NCBI RefSeq assembly: GCF_002803295.2
Contig: NZ_PGGB02000008.1
Location: 30,001-62,000, forward strand
DNA from: Caedibacter taeniospiralis
GTDB lineage: Bacteria; Pseudomonadota; Gammaproteobacteria; Francisellales; Francisellaceae
Reading direction: 5' to 3'
Length of the DNA stretch: 32,000 nt
Positions 2,565 through 30,867 of the stretch are shown here, in pieces. Every line of letters starts with the position of its first letter. Position 1 is the stretch's first letter. The translations under genes were made by a program, and so were the position numbers. Under the pieces are notes generated by a model, which was not told the origin of the DNA, did no database searches, and worked only from the letters and a program-made list of their open reading frames with translations.

Positions 2565-3334
2565 GGTTTGATACGAGTAAAGCACAAGGACTCTGTGCGT
2601 GAAAACTCTGGATTGAGCATATAACCGTCATAGTGAAAGTCTTTAAGTGCATCGATAGTATCAGCTTTATGATCCAGGATATAACGCGCCATCCTTCCAC
2701 GCGCACGTTTGGCAAAAAGCGCTATCGTTTGGTATTTACCTTTGTGATATTCTTTAAAATCAATCTCAAGCCATGTTGCCTTAACAGCTTTTTTATTAAT
2801 CGCCTTGCTATATTCGTCTGATGCCAAATTGACAATTGCCTTGTGTCCATCTCTCACGATGATTTCATTGAGTTTATGCGTTAGTGTTTCGCGCCAAAAG
2901 TCATACAACAACGTGTCATCAATCTTAAATTTTATGCCCATTTCCAAACGATATGCCTGAATCAAATCCAATGGTCGAATAAGACCATAGAGACCTGATA
3001 GCATTAATAAGTGGCATTGCGCGTATTCAATCTGATCCTGGTTTAGACTCAATGCCTCAAGTCCGCGATAAACATCACCGCTAAAAGCAAACAGTGCTTG
3101 CTTGGCATTGTCTTTTGTATAGTGCTCCACATCAAAGTTAAGATACATTTCAAAAACCCCTTCTGCAAGCTTCGGTGAAATTTTCATTAAGGATTCAAAC
3201 TCATCTGGGCTATAGTGTTTAAGCTTAACGACAAGCTCAGCAGTCTTGGCTTTAAACATCAGATCAGTCGTCACTTCAACGGGGGTGTTTTTACTAAAAT
3301 CCTGACTTTTTGCAGGAGAAATAAGGCTTAGCAT
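2561..3334 (-). CDS. yaaA: YaaA/UPF0246 peroxide-stress protein
   Basis: 257 aa. N-terminus MLSLISPAKSQDF and the overall length are typical of the YaaA family. Confidence 0.88.
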   Translation of the reverse strand: MLSLISPAKSQDFSKNTPVEVTTDLMFKAKTAELVVKLKHYSPDEFESLMKISPKLAEGVFEMYLNFDVEHYTKDNAKQALFAFSGDVYRGLEALSLNQDQIEYAQCHLLMLSGLYGLIRPLDLIQAYRLEMGIKFKIDDTLLYDFWRETLTHKLNEIIVRDGHKAIVNLASDEYSKAINKKAVKATWLEIDFKEYHKGKYQTIALFAKRARGRMARYILDHKADTIDALKDFHYDGYMLNPEFSRTESLCFTRIKP

Positions 3335-3496
3335 AATTACTTCTCATCACGAAATTTTCGCTATTGTAACCAGATTTACGCGCTTTTTCGATGCCTATTA
3401 CACAACCCTTTCTTCTCCATCATTTAAGGGGAACTAAACTGGGGCACTAAAAAATCATAAGCACGTCTGAGCTTAATTAAACTCTTCACAAAATTT

Positions 3497-3665
3497 GGGG
3501 TTGACCATCTTTCTGCCCACAAGGGCGTATTCAATACGCCCCTACGATTGTTGGCTTAGACAAAGTATCCGCCCAAAACAAGCAAGCTACCATCAAAAAC
3601 CTTGATGAAATCAAAGGTTATGATGGTGCTTTTTCACAAAGTGGGTGGAAAGATGGTCACCGCCC
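3497..3665. repeat. Nested palindromic intergenic element: ~24-bp imperfect inverted arms enclosing a REP-like hairpin
   Basis: Left arm GGGGTTGACCATCTTTCTGCCCAC (3497-3520) versus right arm GTGGGTGGAAAGATGGTCACCGCC (3641-3664). Inner hairpin GGGCGTAT-TCA-ATACGCCC (3523-3541). The core TTGACC..CACAAGGGCGTATKCAATACGCCCCTAC recurs inverted at 8284-8345. Confidence 0.6.
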
Positions 3666-3790
3666 GATTGTTCAAATGAAAAATGGGCTGAAATTCTGTC
3701 GAAGCCCAAAATTTAATGTGAGATCACGCTGGTGTGTACAGCAGGTTTTAGCTATGCTCATCCAGGATTCTACAAATATAACCAGGGGAT

Positions 3791-5249: not shown

Positions 5250-7112
5250 ATGAAGTTATCAAATATTGAAATTGTTATTGCTAATAGCACACACTGCCGT
5301 TTTGCCGAAGCGATTTCCAGACAAATTGAAGAGAGCGCCAAACAAAGAAAGACAGGTATTGCAAAGCGTAGTGTAAGCTATCTGCAGGGCAAACTACGCA
5401 CGCAACATGCGGTCATTGCGATTGATCAGCTGTTAAATACGGTGGCTGGTTTTTGCTACATAGAATCCTGGCAAGATAAGCGTTATGTCTCCAATTCAGG
5501 ACTCATTGTTTTTCCCGCCTATCGAAATCTGGGCTTATCAAAGATGATAAAAAACAAGGCATTTGAACTTGCGAGAACCTATTACCCAGAGGCTAAGATT
5601 TTTGGTTTAACCACCAATCCGCAAGTGATGCACATCAACTATGAATTAGGCTATGAGCCTGTAGCATTCACGGGACTGACTACCGATAAGACATTTTGGC
5701 AGGGGTGCAAGAGTTGCGTTAATTTCCCTATTTTACAATCAAAAGAATATCAAAACTGTCTGTGTACGGCGATGCTGTATGATCCTGTGAGAAAACAAGC
5801 ACAAAGAGAGCAGCAAAAGGAGCAGAAAATGAAAGTAATCGTCGCTTTTAGTGGAGGATTGGATACGAGTTTTTGTGTCAAATATTTGCAACACGAACAT
5901 GGGCTTGAAGTGCATACTGTCACCGTCAATACGGGTGGTTTTAGTACGATTGAGCTGACAGAAATTGAGAAGAAAGCGTATCAACTGGGGGCTAAAACAC
6001 ATCAATGTATTGATGCAACTAAAGATTTTTATCAGCAATGTGTGAAGTTTTTGATTTTTGCGAATGCGCTAAAAAATAACTGCTATCCCCTGTCGGTGAG
6101 TGCTGAGCGCACCTTTCAAGCCATGACAATCGCTAAAGCCGCTAATAGCATGGGCATCAGTAAAATCGCACATGGATGTACGGGAGCGGGGAACGATCAG
6201 GTGCGCTTTGATCTTATGTTTCATATTTTGTGTCCTCATATTGAAATTATTACCCCTATCAGAGATTTAAAACTCTCGCGCAGCAAAACTCAGGATTATT
6301 TGATTAAGCATGGAATTGCCTGCTCACAAAGCACAAAAAATTATTCAATCAATAAAGGCTTATGGGGAACTTCTGTGGGTGGTGTTGAAACCTTGACTTC
6401 TCATTTATATTTAACGGATGAGGCATGGCCAACGGGGCTAAGTAAAAGCACAAATGAAGCAGAAATGCTGAAAATTACTTTTATAAATGGTGAGCCGATT
6501 GCCTTAAATGATGAGTTATCCAATTCCATCCAAGTCATTCAAAAACTTAATAGCATTGCCAGCCAATACGGTATTGGACGTGACATTCACATCGGCGATA
6601 CCATTATTAATATCAAAGGACGTGTAGGCTTTGAAGCTGCGGCTCCATTGATATTGATTAAGGCGCATCACCTGTTGGAAAAACATGTACTGACTAAGGC
6701 GCAGCTTAAAATTAAAACCCTGCTTACCGACACCTATGCCGAGATGGTGCATGAGGGTCAGTTTTTGGATCCTGCAGTACGAGATGTTGAAGCACTATTA
6801 TTGTCATCACAAGCAAAAGTAACAGGAGATGTTTTCGTACTGCTTAAGCCATACCACTTTGTGCTGTTAGGCGTGCAATCTGAGCATGATTTAATGCAGG
6901 CGCAAAGTGCCAAATATGGAGAGGAAAACACAAGCTTTAGCGGTAATGATGTCAAAGGCTTCACTAAGGTGATGAGTAATCAGTTAGCCACCTATTACCA
7001 GCTACAAAACAACCTCAAAGTGACCAAGTCACTGGAGTTGCGTACTTTTACTGATTTTGACGACTACCCCGTCCGCTTCGCGTCCACCCCTTCGCTAACG
7101 AAGGGGAATTAA
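5250..7112 (+). CDS. argG: Fusion protein: N-terminal GNAT-type acyltransferase (arginine-cluster type) plus argininosuccinate synthase
   Basis: Track ORF starts at TTG 5229; ATG 5250 (MKLSNIEIV..) is more likely. Residues ~1-190 resemble the GNAT gene that precedes argG in Bacteroidetes (..SAKQRKTGIAKRS..AGFCYIESW..SGLIVFPAYRNLGLSK..). From MKVIVAFSGGLDTSFC (5829) onward it is ArgG (HGCTGAGNDQVRFD, SINKGLWGTSVGG). The last 27 codons and the stop lie inside the MITE at 7031-7230. Confidence 0.85.
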   Translation: MKLSNIEIVIANSTHCRFAEAISRQIEESAKQRKTGIAKRSVSYLQGKLRTQHAVIAIDQLLNTVAGFCYIESWQDKRYVSNSGLIVFPAYRNLGLSKMIKNKAFELARTYYPEAKIFGLTTNPQVMHINYELGYEPVAFTGLTTDKTFWQGCKSCVNFPILQSKEYQNCLCTAMLYDPVRKQAQREQQKEQKMKVIVAFSGGLDTSFCVKYLQHEHGLEVHTVTVNTGGFSTIELTEIEKKAYQLGAKTHQCIDATKDFYQQCVKFLIFANALKNNCYPLSVSAERTFQAMTIAKAANSMGISKIAHGCTGAGNDQVRFDLMFHILCPHIEIITPIRDLKLSRSKTQDYLIKHGIACSQSTKNYSINKGLWGTSVGGVETLTSHLYLTDEAWPTGLSKSTNEAEMLKITFINGEPIALNDELSNSIQVIQKLNSIASQYGIGRDIHIGDTIINIKGRVGFEAAAPLILIKAHHLLEKHVLTKAQLKIKTLLTDTYAEMVHEGQFLDPAVRDVEALLLSSQAKVTGDVFVLLKPYHFVLLGVQSEHDLMQAQSAKYGEENTSFSGNDVKGFTKVMSNQLATYYQLQNNLKVTKSLELRTFTDFDDYPVRFASTPSLTKGN

Positions 7113-7230
7113 TGGAGAAGCTTTCCAAAAATTCCCCTTCACTGGTGAAGGGGTGCCGAGCCTGCCTGACCACTCCAGAGCGGTCAGGTCTGCGAGGCGG
7201 GGTAGTGCAGCAAAAGTGCGTAACTCCAGT
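7031..7230. mobile_element. 200-bp MITE-like palindromic element with terminal inverted repeats and a 5-bp target-site duplication
   Basis: TIRs ACTGGAGTTGCGTACTTTTACTG (7031-7053) and the reverse complement of CAGCAAAAGTGCGTAACTCCAGT (7208-7230). Direct repeat AAGTC at 7026-7030 and 7231-7235. Internal hairpins at 7087-7106, 7134-7153 and 7165-7188. No coding capacity of its own. Confidence 0.7.
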
Positions 7231-7271
7231 AAGTCAGATGTGGCAAATGCAATGATAACAGGATAGTGGTT

Positions 7272-8255
7272 ATGGAAGAGAAGCGTATTACAACAGAGCG
7301 TAAAATCAAAGTAGGAGTCATGGGTGGGGCTGGGTATACGGCTGGTGAGCTTTTACGCATCTTAATGCTCCATCCAAAAGTCGAGGTTGTGTTCATTCAT
7401 AGTGAATCAAAACAAGGTGAACTCATTGCTGCAACTCATCATGACTATTATTTTATTGATGATAAACGCCGATTTGATGGAGAAATTCATCAAAATGTTG
7501 ACGTGGTTTTTTTATGTGTTGGTCACCATCAAGCGAAAGCAACACTCATCAAGCATGTCTTCAACCCAAAGACAAAGATAATCGATCTAAGCCAGGATCA
7601 TCGTGATACAAAACAAAATCCGACATTCATGTATGGTCTGGCAGATGTTGAAAAAAAACGCATAGCCTCAGCGCAGAACATTGCCAATCCTGGTTGTTTT
7701 GCTACGGCAATCACACTGGCACTTGTGCCTTTTTCTGCCCATTTTGAAGGTGATATTCACATCAATGCGATTACTGGCTCAACGGGGGCAGGGGTCATGC
7801 CAAGGGACACCTCACATTTTAGCTGGCGTTCAAACAATATTTCGGTTTATAAGGCATTTAGTCATCAGCATTTGGTAGAGATAAAGCAAGCGCTGAAGCT
7901 TCCTGACACAAGCCAGCTTCTTTTTATTCCAATGCGTGGGAATTTCAGTCGCGGCGTTTTTGCCTCTGTTTATTTTAAATCGTCATTAACTGAGCAAGGC
8001 GCCAAACTGTTATTGCAACAATTTTACGAGGACAGCCTTTTTGTCAAAGTACTTGAGCATGAACCCGATTTGAAAATGGTCGTGAACACCAATGCCTGTA
8101 TGTTGTCGATTAAAAAGCATGGGGATTATTTGCATATTGTCAGTGTTATTGACAATTTAATTAAAGGCGCTTCAGGACAGGCTGTACAGAATATGAATCT
8201 GATGTTTGGGTTACCTGAAGCGTTGGGGCTAAGGTTCAAAGCAAGCGTATTTTAG
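7272..8255 (+). CDS. argC: N-acyl-gamma-glutamyl-phosphate reductase
   Basis: KIKVGVMGGAGYTAGELLRIL Rossmann N-terminus and catalytic Cys in ANPGCFATAI. Bacteroidetes-like short form. Start is ATG 7272 or GTG 7266; the GTG would overlap the reconstructed pre-MITE argG stop. Confidence 0.9.
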   Translation: MEEKRITTERKIKVGVMGGAGYTAGELLRILMLHPKVEVVFIHSESKQGELIAATHHDYYFIDDKRRFDGEIHQNVDVVFLCVGHHQAKATLIKHVFNPKTKIIDLSQDHRDTKQNPTFMYGLADVEKKRIASAQNIANPGCFATAITLALVPFSAHFEGDIHINAITGSTGAGVMPRDTSHFSWRSNNISVYKAFSHQHLVEIKQALKLPDTSQLLFIPMRGNFSRGVFASVYFKSSLTEQGAKLLLQQFYEDSLFVKVLEHEPDLKMVVNTNACMLSIKKHGDYLHIVSVIDNLIKGASGQAVQNMNLMFGLPEALGLRFKASVF

Positions 8256-8283: not shown

Positions 8284-8345
8284 TTGGCATAAATGTAGGG
8301 GCGTATTGCATACGCCCTTGTGATCAGCAATAAGGTCAATGCCAA
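8284..8345. repeat. REP-like nested hairpin between argC and argF' (same family as 3497-3665, opposite orientation)
   Basis: Outer stem TTGGCAT (8284-8290) / ATGCCAA (8339-8345). Inner hairpin GGGCGTAT-TGC-ATACGCCC (8299-8317). Its reverse complement, TTGACCTTATTGCTGATCACAAGGGCGTATGCAATACGCCCCTAC, aligns with 3501-3545. Confidence 0.6.
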
Positions 8346-15659: not shown

Positions 15660-15696
15660 TTCTTACAGTAAAAAAATGTGCATAACTCCAGTAATT

Positions 15697-16047
15697 TTAA
15701 ACCTGATGCAGACCATCCTTTCTGATAAATCGTCCACCAAGAATATGATAGTGTAAATGAAAAATGGTTTGACCACCCGCTCTTCCTGTATTAATTAGCG
15801 TTTTAAAGCCAGCATTCAAACCTAATGTTTCCGCAAGTTTAGGAATGGCAAGATTGATCTTTCCAACAAGTTCTAAATCCTTTTCTTCAACATGGTTTAA
15901 GCTATCAATGTGTTTTTTGGGAACGACCAGCACGTGCGTTTCAGCAACTGGAAAGGCATCGTGAAAGGCTAGAATATCACTGTCTTCATAGACTTTCTGC
16001 GTGTTTATTTCACCTCTAATAATTTTACAAAAAATACAATCGCTCAT
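15697..16047 (-). CDS. hinT: HIT-family nucleotide hydrolase (HinT-like)
   Basis: 116 aa. CIFCKII N-terminus and histidine triad HLHYHILGG. Confidence 0.9.
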   Translation of the reverse strand: MSDCIFCKIIRGEINTQKVYEDSDILAFHDAFPVAETHVLVVPKKHIDSLNHVEEKDLELVGKINLAIPKLAETLGLNAGFKTLINTGRAGGQTIFHLHYHILGGRFIRKDGLHQV

Positions 16048-29766: not shown

Positions 29767-30867
29767 TTATCCTTCTTGACCAAATCTAAAATCTATACCT
29801 TCCGCAATCAGTTTTCTTGCGCCATCATCTGTGGGCATGACGGGCGCCTGCACATTCTTAAATGCCAATAAAAGCGCGCGATCACACTGCGTGCTGCCGC
29901 TTGAGACTGAAATACGAGGAGCATGTCCTGCCATCACCATCACCGTTGGTAGCTTCTGCGCACTTATCTTACGACAATCATCCATTATCCACACAGCTTC
30001 AATTCGCGCTTTATAGGCGCTTGCATAAGCCTGTAATGCCTGATCTGTCGCGCTTTGTGCGCTAGCCCTTGCACTCTGGGCATTCAAGTCACTTAATGCA
30101 GACTGCCTAAGCGCATTTAACGCCGCCTCACGCGCGGCTTTTGCTGCCGCCTCTTGGGCTTTTTGCTGCACCAGTTTTTCAGCTGCTAACTGTGCTTCTT
30201 TGTTCTTTTTTTCTGCTGCAAGCGCTTTTTGTTTGGCAAGTTCTTGTTGTTCTTTTCTAAGCTTTTCCGCTTGTTTCTGCTTCTGTATTTCTTGCTTTTT
30301 AGCCAGGGCGTTTTGCTTTTCTTCTTGCGCTTTTTTGGCTTCTTGCTCTGCCTTACGCTTTTCTTCTTGCGCTTTTTTGACCTCTTGCTCTGCCTTACGC
30401 TTTTCTTCCGCCAGCATTGCTACTTTTGCTTCTTCTGCCTGCTTTAATGCTGCCTGACGTTGTAGTTCTGCCTCATGCGCGCGAGCTGTTTTCTCTTCTA
30501 TCTCTTTCATCTTTGCTTGATGCTGCTCCTGAGCCAGTTTTTGCTCATAGACCTGCTTTTGCGCTAACTGATAGGCATTTACCTCTTCTTCAAGATACTG
30601 AGTTGAAATCGCCGTGGCCTGAACAATTTCAGTGGTATCTACTGTCTTAATCGTTCTCTGACCTGCTAAGTTCAATGTGTTTTTTTTACCTTGCAACACA
30701 CTCGCTAAAATAACTAATCCAATGACAAAAACAACGTGCAGCATAATGGAATAACAAAAGCTTAAACGTTCAGGGGTAGCAGTTGCCGCAACATATAGTC
30801 TTTTTAAGCGATTATACACGTTAGCACCCAAAACTTGCCTTGAGTTTTGACTACGATTTTGAGTCAT
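29767..30867 (-). CDS. tolA: Tol-Pal system protein TolA
   Basis: N-terminal TM anchor, long K/A/E/Q-rich helical domain II, and a small C-terminal globular domain. Positioned between tolR and tolB. Confidence 0.8.
   Translation of the reverse strand: MTQNRSQNSRQVLGANVYNRLKRLYVAATATPERLSFCYSIMLHVVFVIGLVILASVLQGKKNTLNLAGQRTIKTVDTTEIVQATAISTQYLEEEVNAYQLAQKQVYEQKLAQEQHQAKMKEIEEKTARAHEAELQRQAALKQAEEAKVAMLAEEKRKAEQEVKKAQEEKRKAEQEAKKAQEEKQNALAKKQEIQKQKQAEKLRKEQQELAKQKALAAEKKNKEAQLAAEKLVQQKAQEAAAKAAREAALNALRQSALSDLNAQSARASAQSATDQALQAYASAYKARIEAVWIMDDCRKISAQKLPTVMVMAGHAPRISVSSGSTQCDRALLLAFKNVQAPVMPTDDGARKLIAEGIDFRFGQEG
30321..30404. repeat. 2 x 42-bp tandem repeat inside tolA (14-aa unit KRKAEQE[V/A]KKAQEE)
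   Basis: 30321-30362 and 30363-30404 differ at only a few positions (CTTCTTGCGCTTTTTTGGCTTCTTGCTCTGCCTTACGCTTTT vs ..TTGACCTC..). Confidence 0.8.

Follow-up and report, generated by a model that had tools for sequence, protein, structure and literature searches.

The stretch of DNA analysed here, hereafter the window, comprises 32,000 nucleotides (positions 30,001 to 62,000 of contig NZ_PGGB02000008.1) and encodes on its + strand a cluster of arginine biosynthesis genes, whose argG and argC members meet at a 200-bp element without transposase coding capacity, very probably a miniature inverted-repeat transposable element (MITE). The first of these genes is an open reading frame (ORF 5229/5250-7112) encoding a GNAT domain joined to argininosuccinate synthase (GNAT-ArgG fusion) of 620 amino acids from the ATG at 5250 (feature 5250-7112, +), a product matched by protein P0125. 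The second, argC, was identified by Pfam as encoding N-acetyl-gamma-glutamyl-phosphate reductase and, from alignment and gene calls in relatives, probably spans positions 7272-8255 (+). It is followed by an acetylornithine/ornithine carbamoyltransferase-type gene, by argB (Pfam) and by three more + strand ORFs, the first of which has a counterpart downstream of argB in Cysteiniphilum halobium with peptidase M20 domains (Pfam).

Structure of the element at the argG-argC junction

The element occupies positions 7031-7230 and is bounded by a left terminal inverted repeat (TIR), ACTGGAGTTGCGTACTTTTACTG (7031-7053, +), and a right TIR, CAGCAAAAGTGCGTAACTCCAGT (7208-7230, -; reverse complement ACTGGAGTTACGCACTTTTGCTG). 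The pentanucleotide AAGTC directly abuts both ends (7026-7030 and 7231-7235) as a target-site duplication (TSD). The two arms, of 23 nt each, are complementary at 20 of 23 positions (87%) and all three differences are transitions, so that the 200-bp element delineated by the original prediction, with transition-only differences between its TIRs and flanking AAGTC copies, was borne out in the sequence. When the window was searched with a 19-nt arm pattern, allowing up to three mismatches, only the two arms themselves were returned (0.01 matches expected by chance), and relaxation to four mismatches added a single solo match at 15674-15692. This degenerate end, ACTGGAGTTATGCACATTT, lies on the - strand, abuts the stop of an ORF at 15697-16047 and has no partner arm; it is probably the remnant of an old copy.

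The interior of the element is dominated by a G+C-rich inverted repeat (7085-7155, with arms at 7085-7116 and 7124-7155), within which lie two self-complementary hairpins of the CCCCTTC...GAAGGGG type, CCCCTTCGCTAACGAAGGGG (7087-7106) and CCCCTTCACTGGTGAAGGGG (7134-7153). A further hairpin module, CCTGACCACTCCAGAGCGGTCAGG (7165-7188), is separate from this inverted repeat and is optional: among the aligned copies of the element described below it was found only in the window and in L027, and it also occurs in the short copy of L033. The G+C content of the element is 0.50-0.60 against approximately 0.40 in its flanks, and its longest internal ORFs, of 41-47 amino acids, fall within the hairpins. 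A check of the 32-kb window for similarity to transposases gave no match. A 210-nt stretch folds on the + strand with a predicted energy of -118.6 kcal/mol, compared with a mean of -65 for shuffled sequences (z = -11.9), and the - strand fold of the element region also stands out from its shuffles (z = -8.6). Ribosomes translating positions 7031-7112 would, according to the predicted fold, prevent the long TIR stem from forming, and the untranslated right half of the element alone folds into local hairpins.

On the - strand, a terminator-like pattern is formed by the hairpin at 7153-7134 and the T-run AATTTTTGG, whilst neither a promoter-like site nor a + strand terminator-like site was seen within the element. 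An Rfam scan of the whole window at gathering scores retrieved four tRNAs only, and the element matched no family; a relaxed scan of the element returned generic plant microRNA-hairpin matches that were far below threshold and were set aside as meaningless. Searches of plasmid and phage collections with the element (blastn) gave no match.

Empty sites and age of the insertion

The empty argG-argC site implied by the original prediction was found in the closely related Caedibacter taeniospiralis. Two contigs of this species (L041 and L042) lack the element and share 96-98% identity with the window at this locus, in an alignment that stops at 7031 and resumes at 7231 with a 6-nt overlap. Their junction reads ...GTGACCAAGTCAGATGT... 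(GTGACCAAGTCAGATGTAGCAAATGCAATGATAACAGGATAGTGGTTATGGAAGAG) and contains one AAGTC. The element is also absent from Cysteiniphilum sp. QT6929 and C. halobium (84% amino acid identity), in which the argG stop is followed after 6 nt by the argC ATG. Conversely, the insertion is shared by the contigs JACCDZ010209778 (L017) and DALYEQ010000027 (L043), the flanks of which are 99.7% identical to the window, giving three insertion-bearing strains that are only ~0.3% diverged from one another.

Judged from these alignments, the 200-bp segment is a true insertion, for which the evidence is decisive. Given the exact empty site in C. taeniospiralis and the presence of the insertion in L017 and L043, the same comparisons date the event as younger than the split from C. 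taeniospiralis and older than the divergence of the three sampled strains.

Consequences for argG and argC

The last 26 codons of argG (7032-7109) and its stop codon (TAA, 7110-7112) are encoded by the element. That the stop is taken from the element had been predicted, as had the exchange of the ArgG C-terminus, though the 27 element-derived residues originally counted are reduced to 26, since the serine codon TCA (7029-7031) that spans the left junction exists with or without the element. The 26 new residues, LELRTFTDFDDYPVRFASTPSLTKGN (LELRTF...TKGN), replace nine (DVANAMITG). The orphaned ancestral 3' end of argG (GAT..GGA TAG, encoding DVANAMITG*) persists untranslated at 7236-7266 (+), with the ancestral TAG at 7264-7266, and is identical to the argG end of C. 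taeniospiralis. At the protein level, the C. taeniospiralis ArgG WP_395946165.1 (P0123), a member of the 90%-identity cluster of the window ArgG, ends in ...KVTKSDVANAMITG (longer stretch YYQLQNNLKVTKSDVANAMITG), which is identical to the ancestral tail ..SDVANAMITG previously reconstructed from the window alone. The ArgG tails of QT6929 and C. halobium (...SSIKAAVTG and ...KTTVVTE, respectively) resemble the ancestral ...AMITG, and no orthologue outside the insertion-bearing strains was found with a tail of the LELRTF type, again in keeping with the original prediction.

The insertion point falls outside the Pfam domain Arginosuc_syn_C, which ends 15 residues earlier, in a tail that varies in both length and sequence among orthologues; ArgG proteins of the Bacteroidota type end at about this position. 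In strain L043, a +CC slip within the element has already produced a frameshifted tail, ...FASTPLR*, and none of the downstream arg genes is disrupted in the three strains that bear the insertion. Because the site is beyond the conserved domain, the tail is variable among orthologues, that of L043 is frameshifted and the downstream genes are intact, the new tail would most likely be tolerated rather than used, and the insertion neutral or nearly so.

Fusion of GNAT and ArgG in one protein of 585-630 amino acids was observed in the window organism and in Cysteiniphilum, Fastidiosibacter and Facilibium. The ArgG part of the fusion is ~60% identical to Bacteroidota ArgG, a similarity that suggests a Bacteroidota-type arg cluster acquired horizontally.

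The likely start of argC is the ATG at 7272, preceded by the Shine-Dalgarno sequence AGGA (7260-7263) at a distance of 8 nt. The gene is called from the same ATG in L017, L043 and L041, 5 nt past the ancestral TAG, and the corresponding spacer in Cysteiniphilum is 6 nt. The alternative start GTG 7266 was rejected, as it is poorly spaced from AGGA and gene calls in related strains point to ATG 7272. Deletion of the element does restore the TAG at 7264-7266, as originally proposed, yet the TAGTG overlap with a GTG start of argC does not stand; the ancestral junction was most likely closely spaced and not overlapping, with argC starting at ATG 7272. The distance from argG stop to argC start has grown from an ancestral 5 nt to 159 nt (153 nt if measured to GTG 7266), all of it now untranslated, so that the increase of ~155 nt between the two cistrons was foreseen correctly and the overlapping ancestral state was not.

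C. taeniospiralis is an obligate endosymbiont of Paramecium, and in its element-free contig L041 (2105-6991) three parts of the operon, namely the GNAT part, argC and the gene for the carbamoyltransferase, are broken into fragments. Arginine synthesis appears to be decaying in this one lineage only. As the operon is decayed in C. taeniospiralis without the element and intact in the strains that bear it, the insertion is not linked to loss of the pathway.

A dispersed and modular family of elements

Copies of the element were sought with the 19-nt end in genome and metagenome collections, followed by local BLAST and inspection. Matches were obtained in at least seven contigs of JACCDZ (the metagenome assembly that also holds the 99.7%-identical sister contig L017), in three Caedibacter metagenome-assembled genome (MAG) contigs and in six Cysteiniphilum contigs, and they include further copies of 87-200 bp at unrelated loci, the existence of which had been a prediction of the MITE interpretation. 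Those from JACCDZ comprise a 200-bp copy that is 90.5% identical to the window element (L027 5550-5749), copies of 173 bp (L037 8301-8473), 123 bp (L037 410-532), 108 bp (L033) and 87 bp (L036), and partial copies in L038 and L025. Copies of 170-177 bp were retrieved from Caedibacter sp. MAG-148 (L010, L004 and L005), and copies of 172-183 bp from C. litorale, Cysteiniphilum sp. JM-1 and Cysteiniphilum sp. 19S12-1 (L003, L014, L007 and L011), the family being represented in four Cysteiniphilum genomes. Of ten complete copies, seven are flanked by a perfect 5-bp TSD (AAGTC, TATTA twice, AAATA twice, AACTA and TATTT).

Its members are assembled from modules: the 87-bp form consists of the two arms and one ACCCCG...CGGGGT stem, and the longer forms contain between one and three hairpin modules in addition. 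Two subfamilies can be distinguished by the sequence of the hairpin stem, which reads CCCCTCTTGCAAAGAGGGG in the Cysteiniphilum type, with pairing retained; between the subfamilies, 7 of 44 hairpin pairs are altered on both sides. The possibility that the element is open in most frames, as are Rickettsia palindromic elements (RPEs), was rejected after six-frame translation of nine copies revealed stops in most frames.

The copies in L033 and L036 lie within strings of genes, a few nucleotides from gene ends, and those in L036 and L014 each complete the stop codon of a host gene by supplying its final base. In JACCDZ, an HlyD-like ORF (L037 443-1366, -) derives its last ~30 codons (WSYPLSLHYPASQARHPFTGEGVDAKRTG) from the 123-bp MITE copy. 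On account of the HlyD-like tail and of these stop-codon bases, capture of C-terminal tails is a recurrent by-product of this MITE family.

Not every match to the ends was accepted as a copy. The TIR matches that adjoin lpxC and a 5S rRNA gene in C. litorale L002 and C. marinum L009 consist of a solo end each and do not represent copies of an insertion sequence (IS), whilst those in Paenibacillus L006, Desulfovibrionaceae L008 and the Chromatiales MAG L013 are isolated 19-mers without an element and probably arose by chance.

The element is therefore small and noncoding, with TIRs, a TSD of constant length, dispersed copies, filled and empty states of one site and ends in common with an autonomous IS (see below), which are the properties of a MITE. 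No MITE is mentioned in the C. taeniospiralis genome paper or in the searchable Francisella and Cysteiniphilum literature; with no description found there, we regard the sequence family as new for the Fastidiosibacteraceae (Caedibacter and Cysteiniphilum).

A candidate IS701-family partner

The 19-nt end ACTGGAGTTACGCACTTTT, which is exactly the right arm of the window element and from which the left arm departs at two positions, is identical in two full-length ISs that came from a TIR scan of metagenomes (L021 158-1336, 1179 bp, and L031 1-1180, both metagenome contigs). These encode proteins of 362-379 amino acids that match the NCBIfam model NF049921, 'IS701 family transposase', with 282 bits (cut-off 250). 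Decayed copies with the same end were located in Francisella sp. 19X1-34 (L012) and, beside a tRNA, in the Logan contig L020; the 51-amino acid transposase fragment of the former, used as a query, retrieved only itself and one decayed Logan copy.

ISAba11, a characterised member of the IS701 family, has a 5-bp target duplication. IS701-type elements of Piscirickettsia salmonis and of a Francisella novicida plasmid have partly similar ends (...TTACGCA...), and related P. salmonis transposase halves match DDE_5 and NF049921. In the P. salmonis plasmid L018, a G+C-rich insert of ~270 bp (2917-3187) interrupts an IS701-type transposase gene. The IS that adjoins the arg genes of Cysteiniphilum QT6929 (L015, from 7175) differs at its ends and is not related.

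Origin of the insertion and alternative explanations

Taken together, the 200-bp segment is very probably a non-autonomous MITE related to IS701-family ISs that inserted into the argG tail, most likely with near-neutral effect, and that is presumably mobilised in trans by an IS701-type transposase. Such a DDE transposase would recognise the 23-nt TIRs and insert the element by cut-and-paste into the AAGTC located 10 codons from the end of argG, with duplication of this 5-bp target. The event followed the split from C. taeniospiralis and preceded divergence of the three sampled strains. ArgG thereby exchanged its last 9 residues for 26 encoded by the element, together with an element-borne TAA, and the argC start moved from 5 nt to 159 nt past the argG stop, behind G+C-rich hairpins that may affect argC expression.

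Several observations weigh against this proposal. Neither the 32-kb window nor the fetched JACCDZ contigs yielded a transposase of this type, and the intact IS copies sit in metagenome contigs. The 1179-bp IS of L021 is without a clean TSD, the 5-bp duplication being seen for the MITEs only, and 5 bp is at odds with the exactly 4 bp described for IS701 proper, although target duplications are given as ~4-5 bp for IS701 and its sister families and as ~5 bp for the emerging families taken together (PMC2266710). Similarity between MITE and IS is confined to ~20 nt at the ends and the interiors have nothing in common, so that the MITE does not derive from the IS by simple internal deletion. Pairing within the interior hairpins, moreover, is kept through compensatory changes between the subfamilies, which could reflect selection on structure rather than pure neutrality.

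This last point bears on a different account, in which the element has been co-opted as a regulatory RNA module within the operon and is kept by selection. The TIR stem and G+C-rich hairpins would here act as a site for RNase III or RNase E, or as a stabiliser of the mRNA, uncoupling GNAT-ArgG from ArgC and the downstream enzymes. The very stable fold (z = -11.9), the compensatory changes at 7 of 44 pairs, retention of the insertion in three strains with an intact operon, the position of the L033 and L036 copies close to gene ends inside gene strings and the precedents of the Correia and ERIC elements, which alter transcripts via RNase III or RNase E (PMC10969869), are all consistent with such a role. 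We nonetheless consider it quite unlikely that the element is maintained in this way. Retention in strains that are ~0.3% diverged says little, the compensatory changes come down in essence to a single split between two subfamilies, and pairing of the TIRs is needed for transposase binding in any case. The element has neither a promoter-like nor a + strand terminator-like site, ribosomes reading the argG tail (7031-7112) would open the long stem along its left arm, and the tail is already frameshifted in one strain. The broader proposition that the nested G+C-rich hairpins are selected as RNA processing or stability modules, such that the argG-argC copy would reset the ratio of ArgG to the downstream arginine enzymes, also seems quite unlikely; if true, it would place co-option in a lineage that keeps arginine synthesis while its obligate-endosymbiont sister has lost it.

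Two further alternatives concern the nature of the segment itself. The nested palindromes, the interior unrelated to that of the IS and the presence in the window of a separate palindrome, GGGCGTATTCAATACGCCCCTAC, resembling repetitive extragenic palindromic (REP) sequences, would suit a palindromic repeat of another kind that is independent of IS701, either a REP or bacterial interspersed mosaic element (BIME) moved by a REP-associated tyrosine transposase (RAYT) or a repeat of the Rickettsia type. This is very improbable in view of the 19-nt ends identical to those of full-length IS701-family elements and of the consistent 5-bp target duplications, which are not made by REP/RAYT elements; the element also ends the ORF instead of being read through. 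Finally, were the 200 bp native or an assembly artefact, the shorter junction in relatives would represent a deletion, for which precise excision offers a formal possibility and nothing more. Against this stand the occurrence of the element in three independent assemblies (the window, JACCDZ010209778 and DALYEQ010000027), the element-free junction shared by the nearest relative and the more distant Cysteiniphilum, a G+C content foreign to the flanks and the paralogous copies at unrelated loci, and we judge it extremely improbable.

Other repeats and insertions in the window

An intergenic segment of 112 bp (3553-3664) is flanked by the 8-bp direct repeat CGATTGTT (3545-3552 and 3665-3672) and has weak terminal inverted repeats. 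The 99.7%-identical L017 lacks it and has one CGATTGTT; from this comparison, the segment looks like a second small mobile insertion that is polymorphic between strains. L043 and C. taeniospiralis L041 both lack the whole 287-bp intergenic block that includes it (3420-3706), and no clear TIR or TSD was seen for this outer block. The nested pattern of presence and absence therefore marks the spacer as a hotspot of nested insertions or deletions. The REP-like palindrome occurs twice in the window, at 3523-3545 (+) and, within the spacer between argC and the carbamoyltransferase gene, at 8295-8317 (-). A further occurrence lies beside a MITE end in a MAG contig of an unrelated proteobacterium (L001 80-102).

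Implications

The argG-argC junction is a textbook-clean case of a bacterial MITE, with the filled and empty states preserved in near-identical genomes, and it defines a MITE family of the Caedibacter/Cysteiniphilum group together with a candidate IS701-family partner. Recognition of the family should be of use in annotation, as its members truncate or extend ORF calls and contigs can end at copies, and in the typing of strains, both of the emerging Cysteiniphilum pathogens and of Paramecium symbionts. The filled and empty sites also constitute a natural allele pair for the effect of a structured intra-operon insert on a downstream cistron. The general picture is unchanged, given that MITE tail swaps and insertions into operons are already documented; the event is clean but ordinary.

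Comparison with known systems

In its size range of 87-200 bp, its TIRs, its fixed-length TSD and its want of a transposase, the family resembles other bacterial MITEs, such as MITEAba12 of Acinetobacter and QMITE1 of Coxiella (PMC10969869). Like them it is multicopy, has ends that match an autonomous IS, varies in presence between close relatives and is sometimes fused to host ORFs, fusions that a 2024 review describes as 'not unusual' (PMC10969869). It differs in that the ends here match an IS701-family element and the interior consists of optional nested hairpin modules rather than a deleted IS. With the IS701 family itself (NF049921 type; ISAba11 is a characterised IS701-family member) the element has in common 19-nt ends identical to those of the 1.18-kb elements, but it encodes nothing, and its short target duplication, within the ~4-5 bp given for IS701 and its sister families, is of 5 bp rather than the 4 bp of IS701 proper.

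A functional parallel may be drawn with the Correia elements of Neisseria and the enterobacterial repetitive intergenic consensus (ERIC) elements, which are likewise bounded by TIRs, are ~100-160 bp in length and are co-transcribed in operons. Their TIRs pair into long RNA stems that can be cleaved by RNases, changing the levels of neighbouring cistrons (PMC2649163), whereas for the window element the stem is a predicted one. The sequences are unrelated, Correia elements duplicate TA as opposed to the 5 bp seen here, and the window element is without an outward promoter-like site.

The likeness to RPEs drawn in the original prediction proved to be a loose one. It extends to a palindromic repeat lying inside a coding gene of an intracellular or host-associated bacterium and adding residues to a metabolic enzyme. 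RPEs, however, are read through in frame within the protein, whilst the window element supplies a stop of its own after 26 codons and takes the place only of a C-terminal tail that is not conserved. It has, in addition, a classical TIR, a TSD and a parent IS, and its host is a gammaproteobacterium of the Caedibacter/Cysteiniphilum group.

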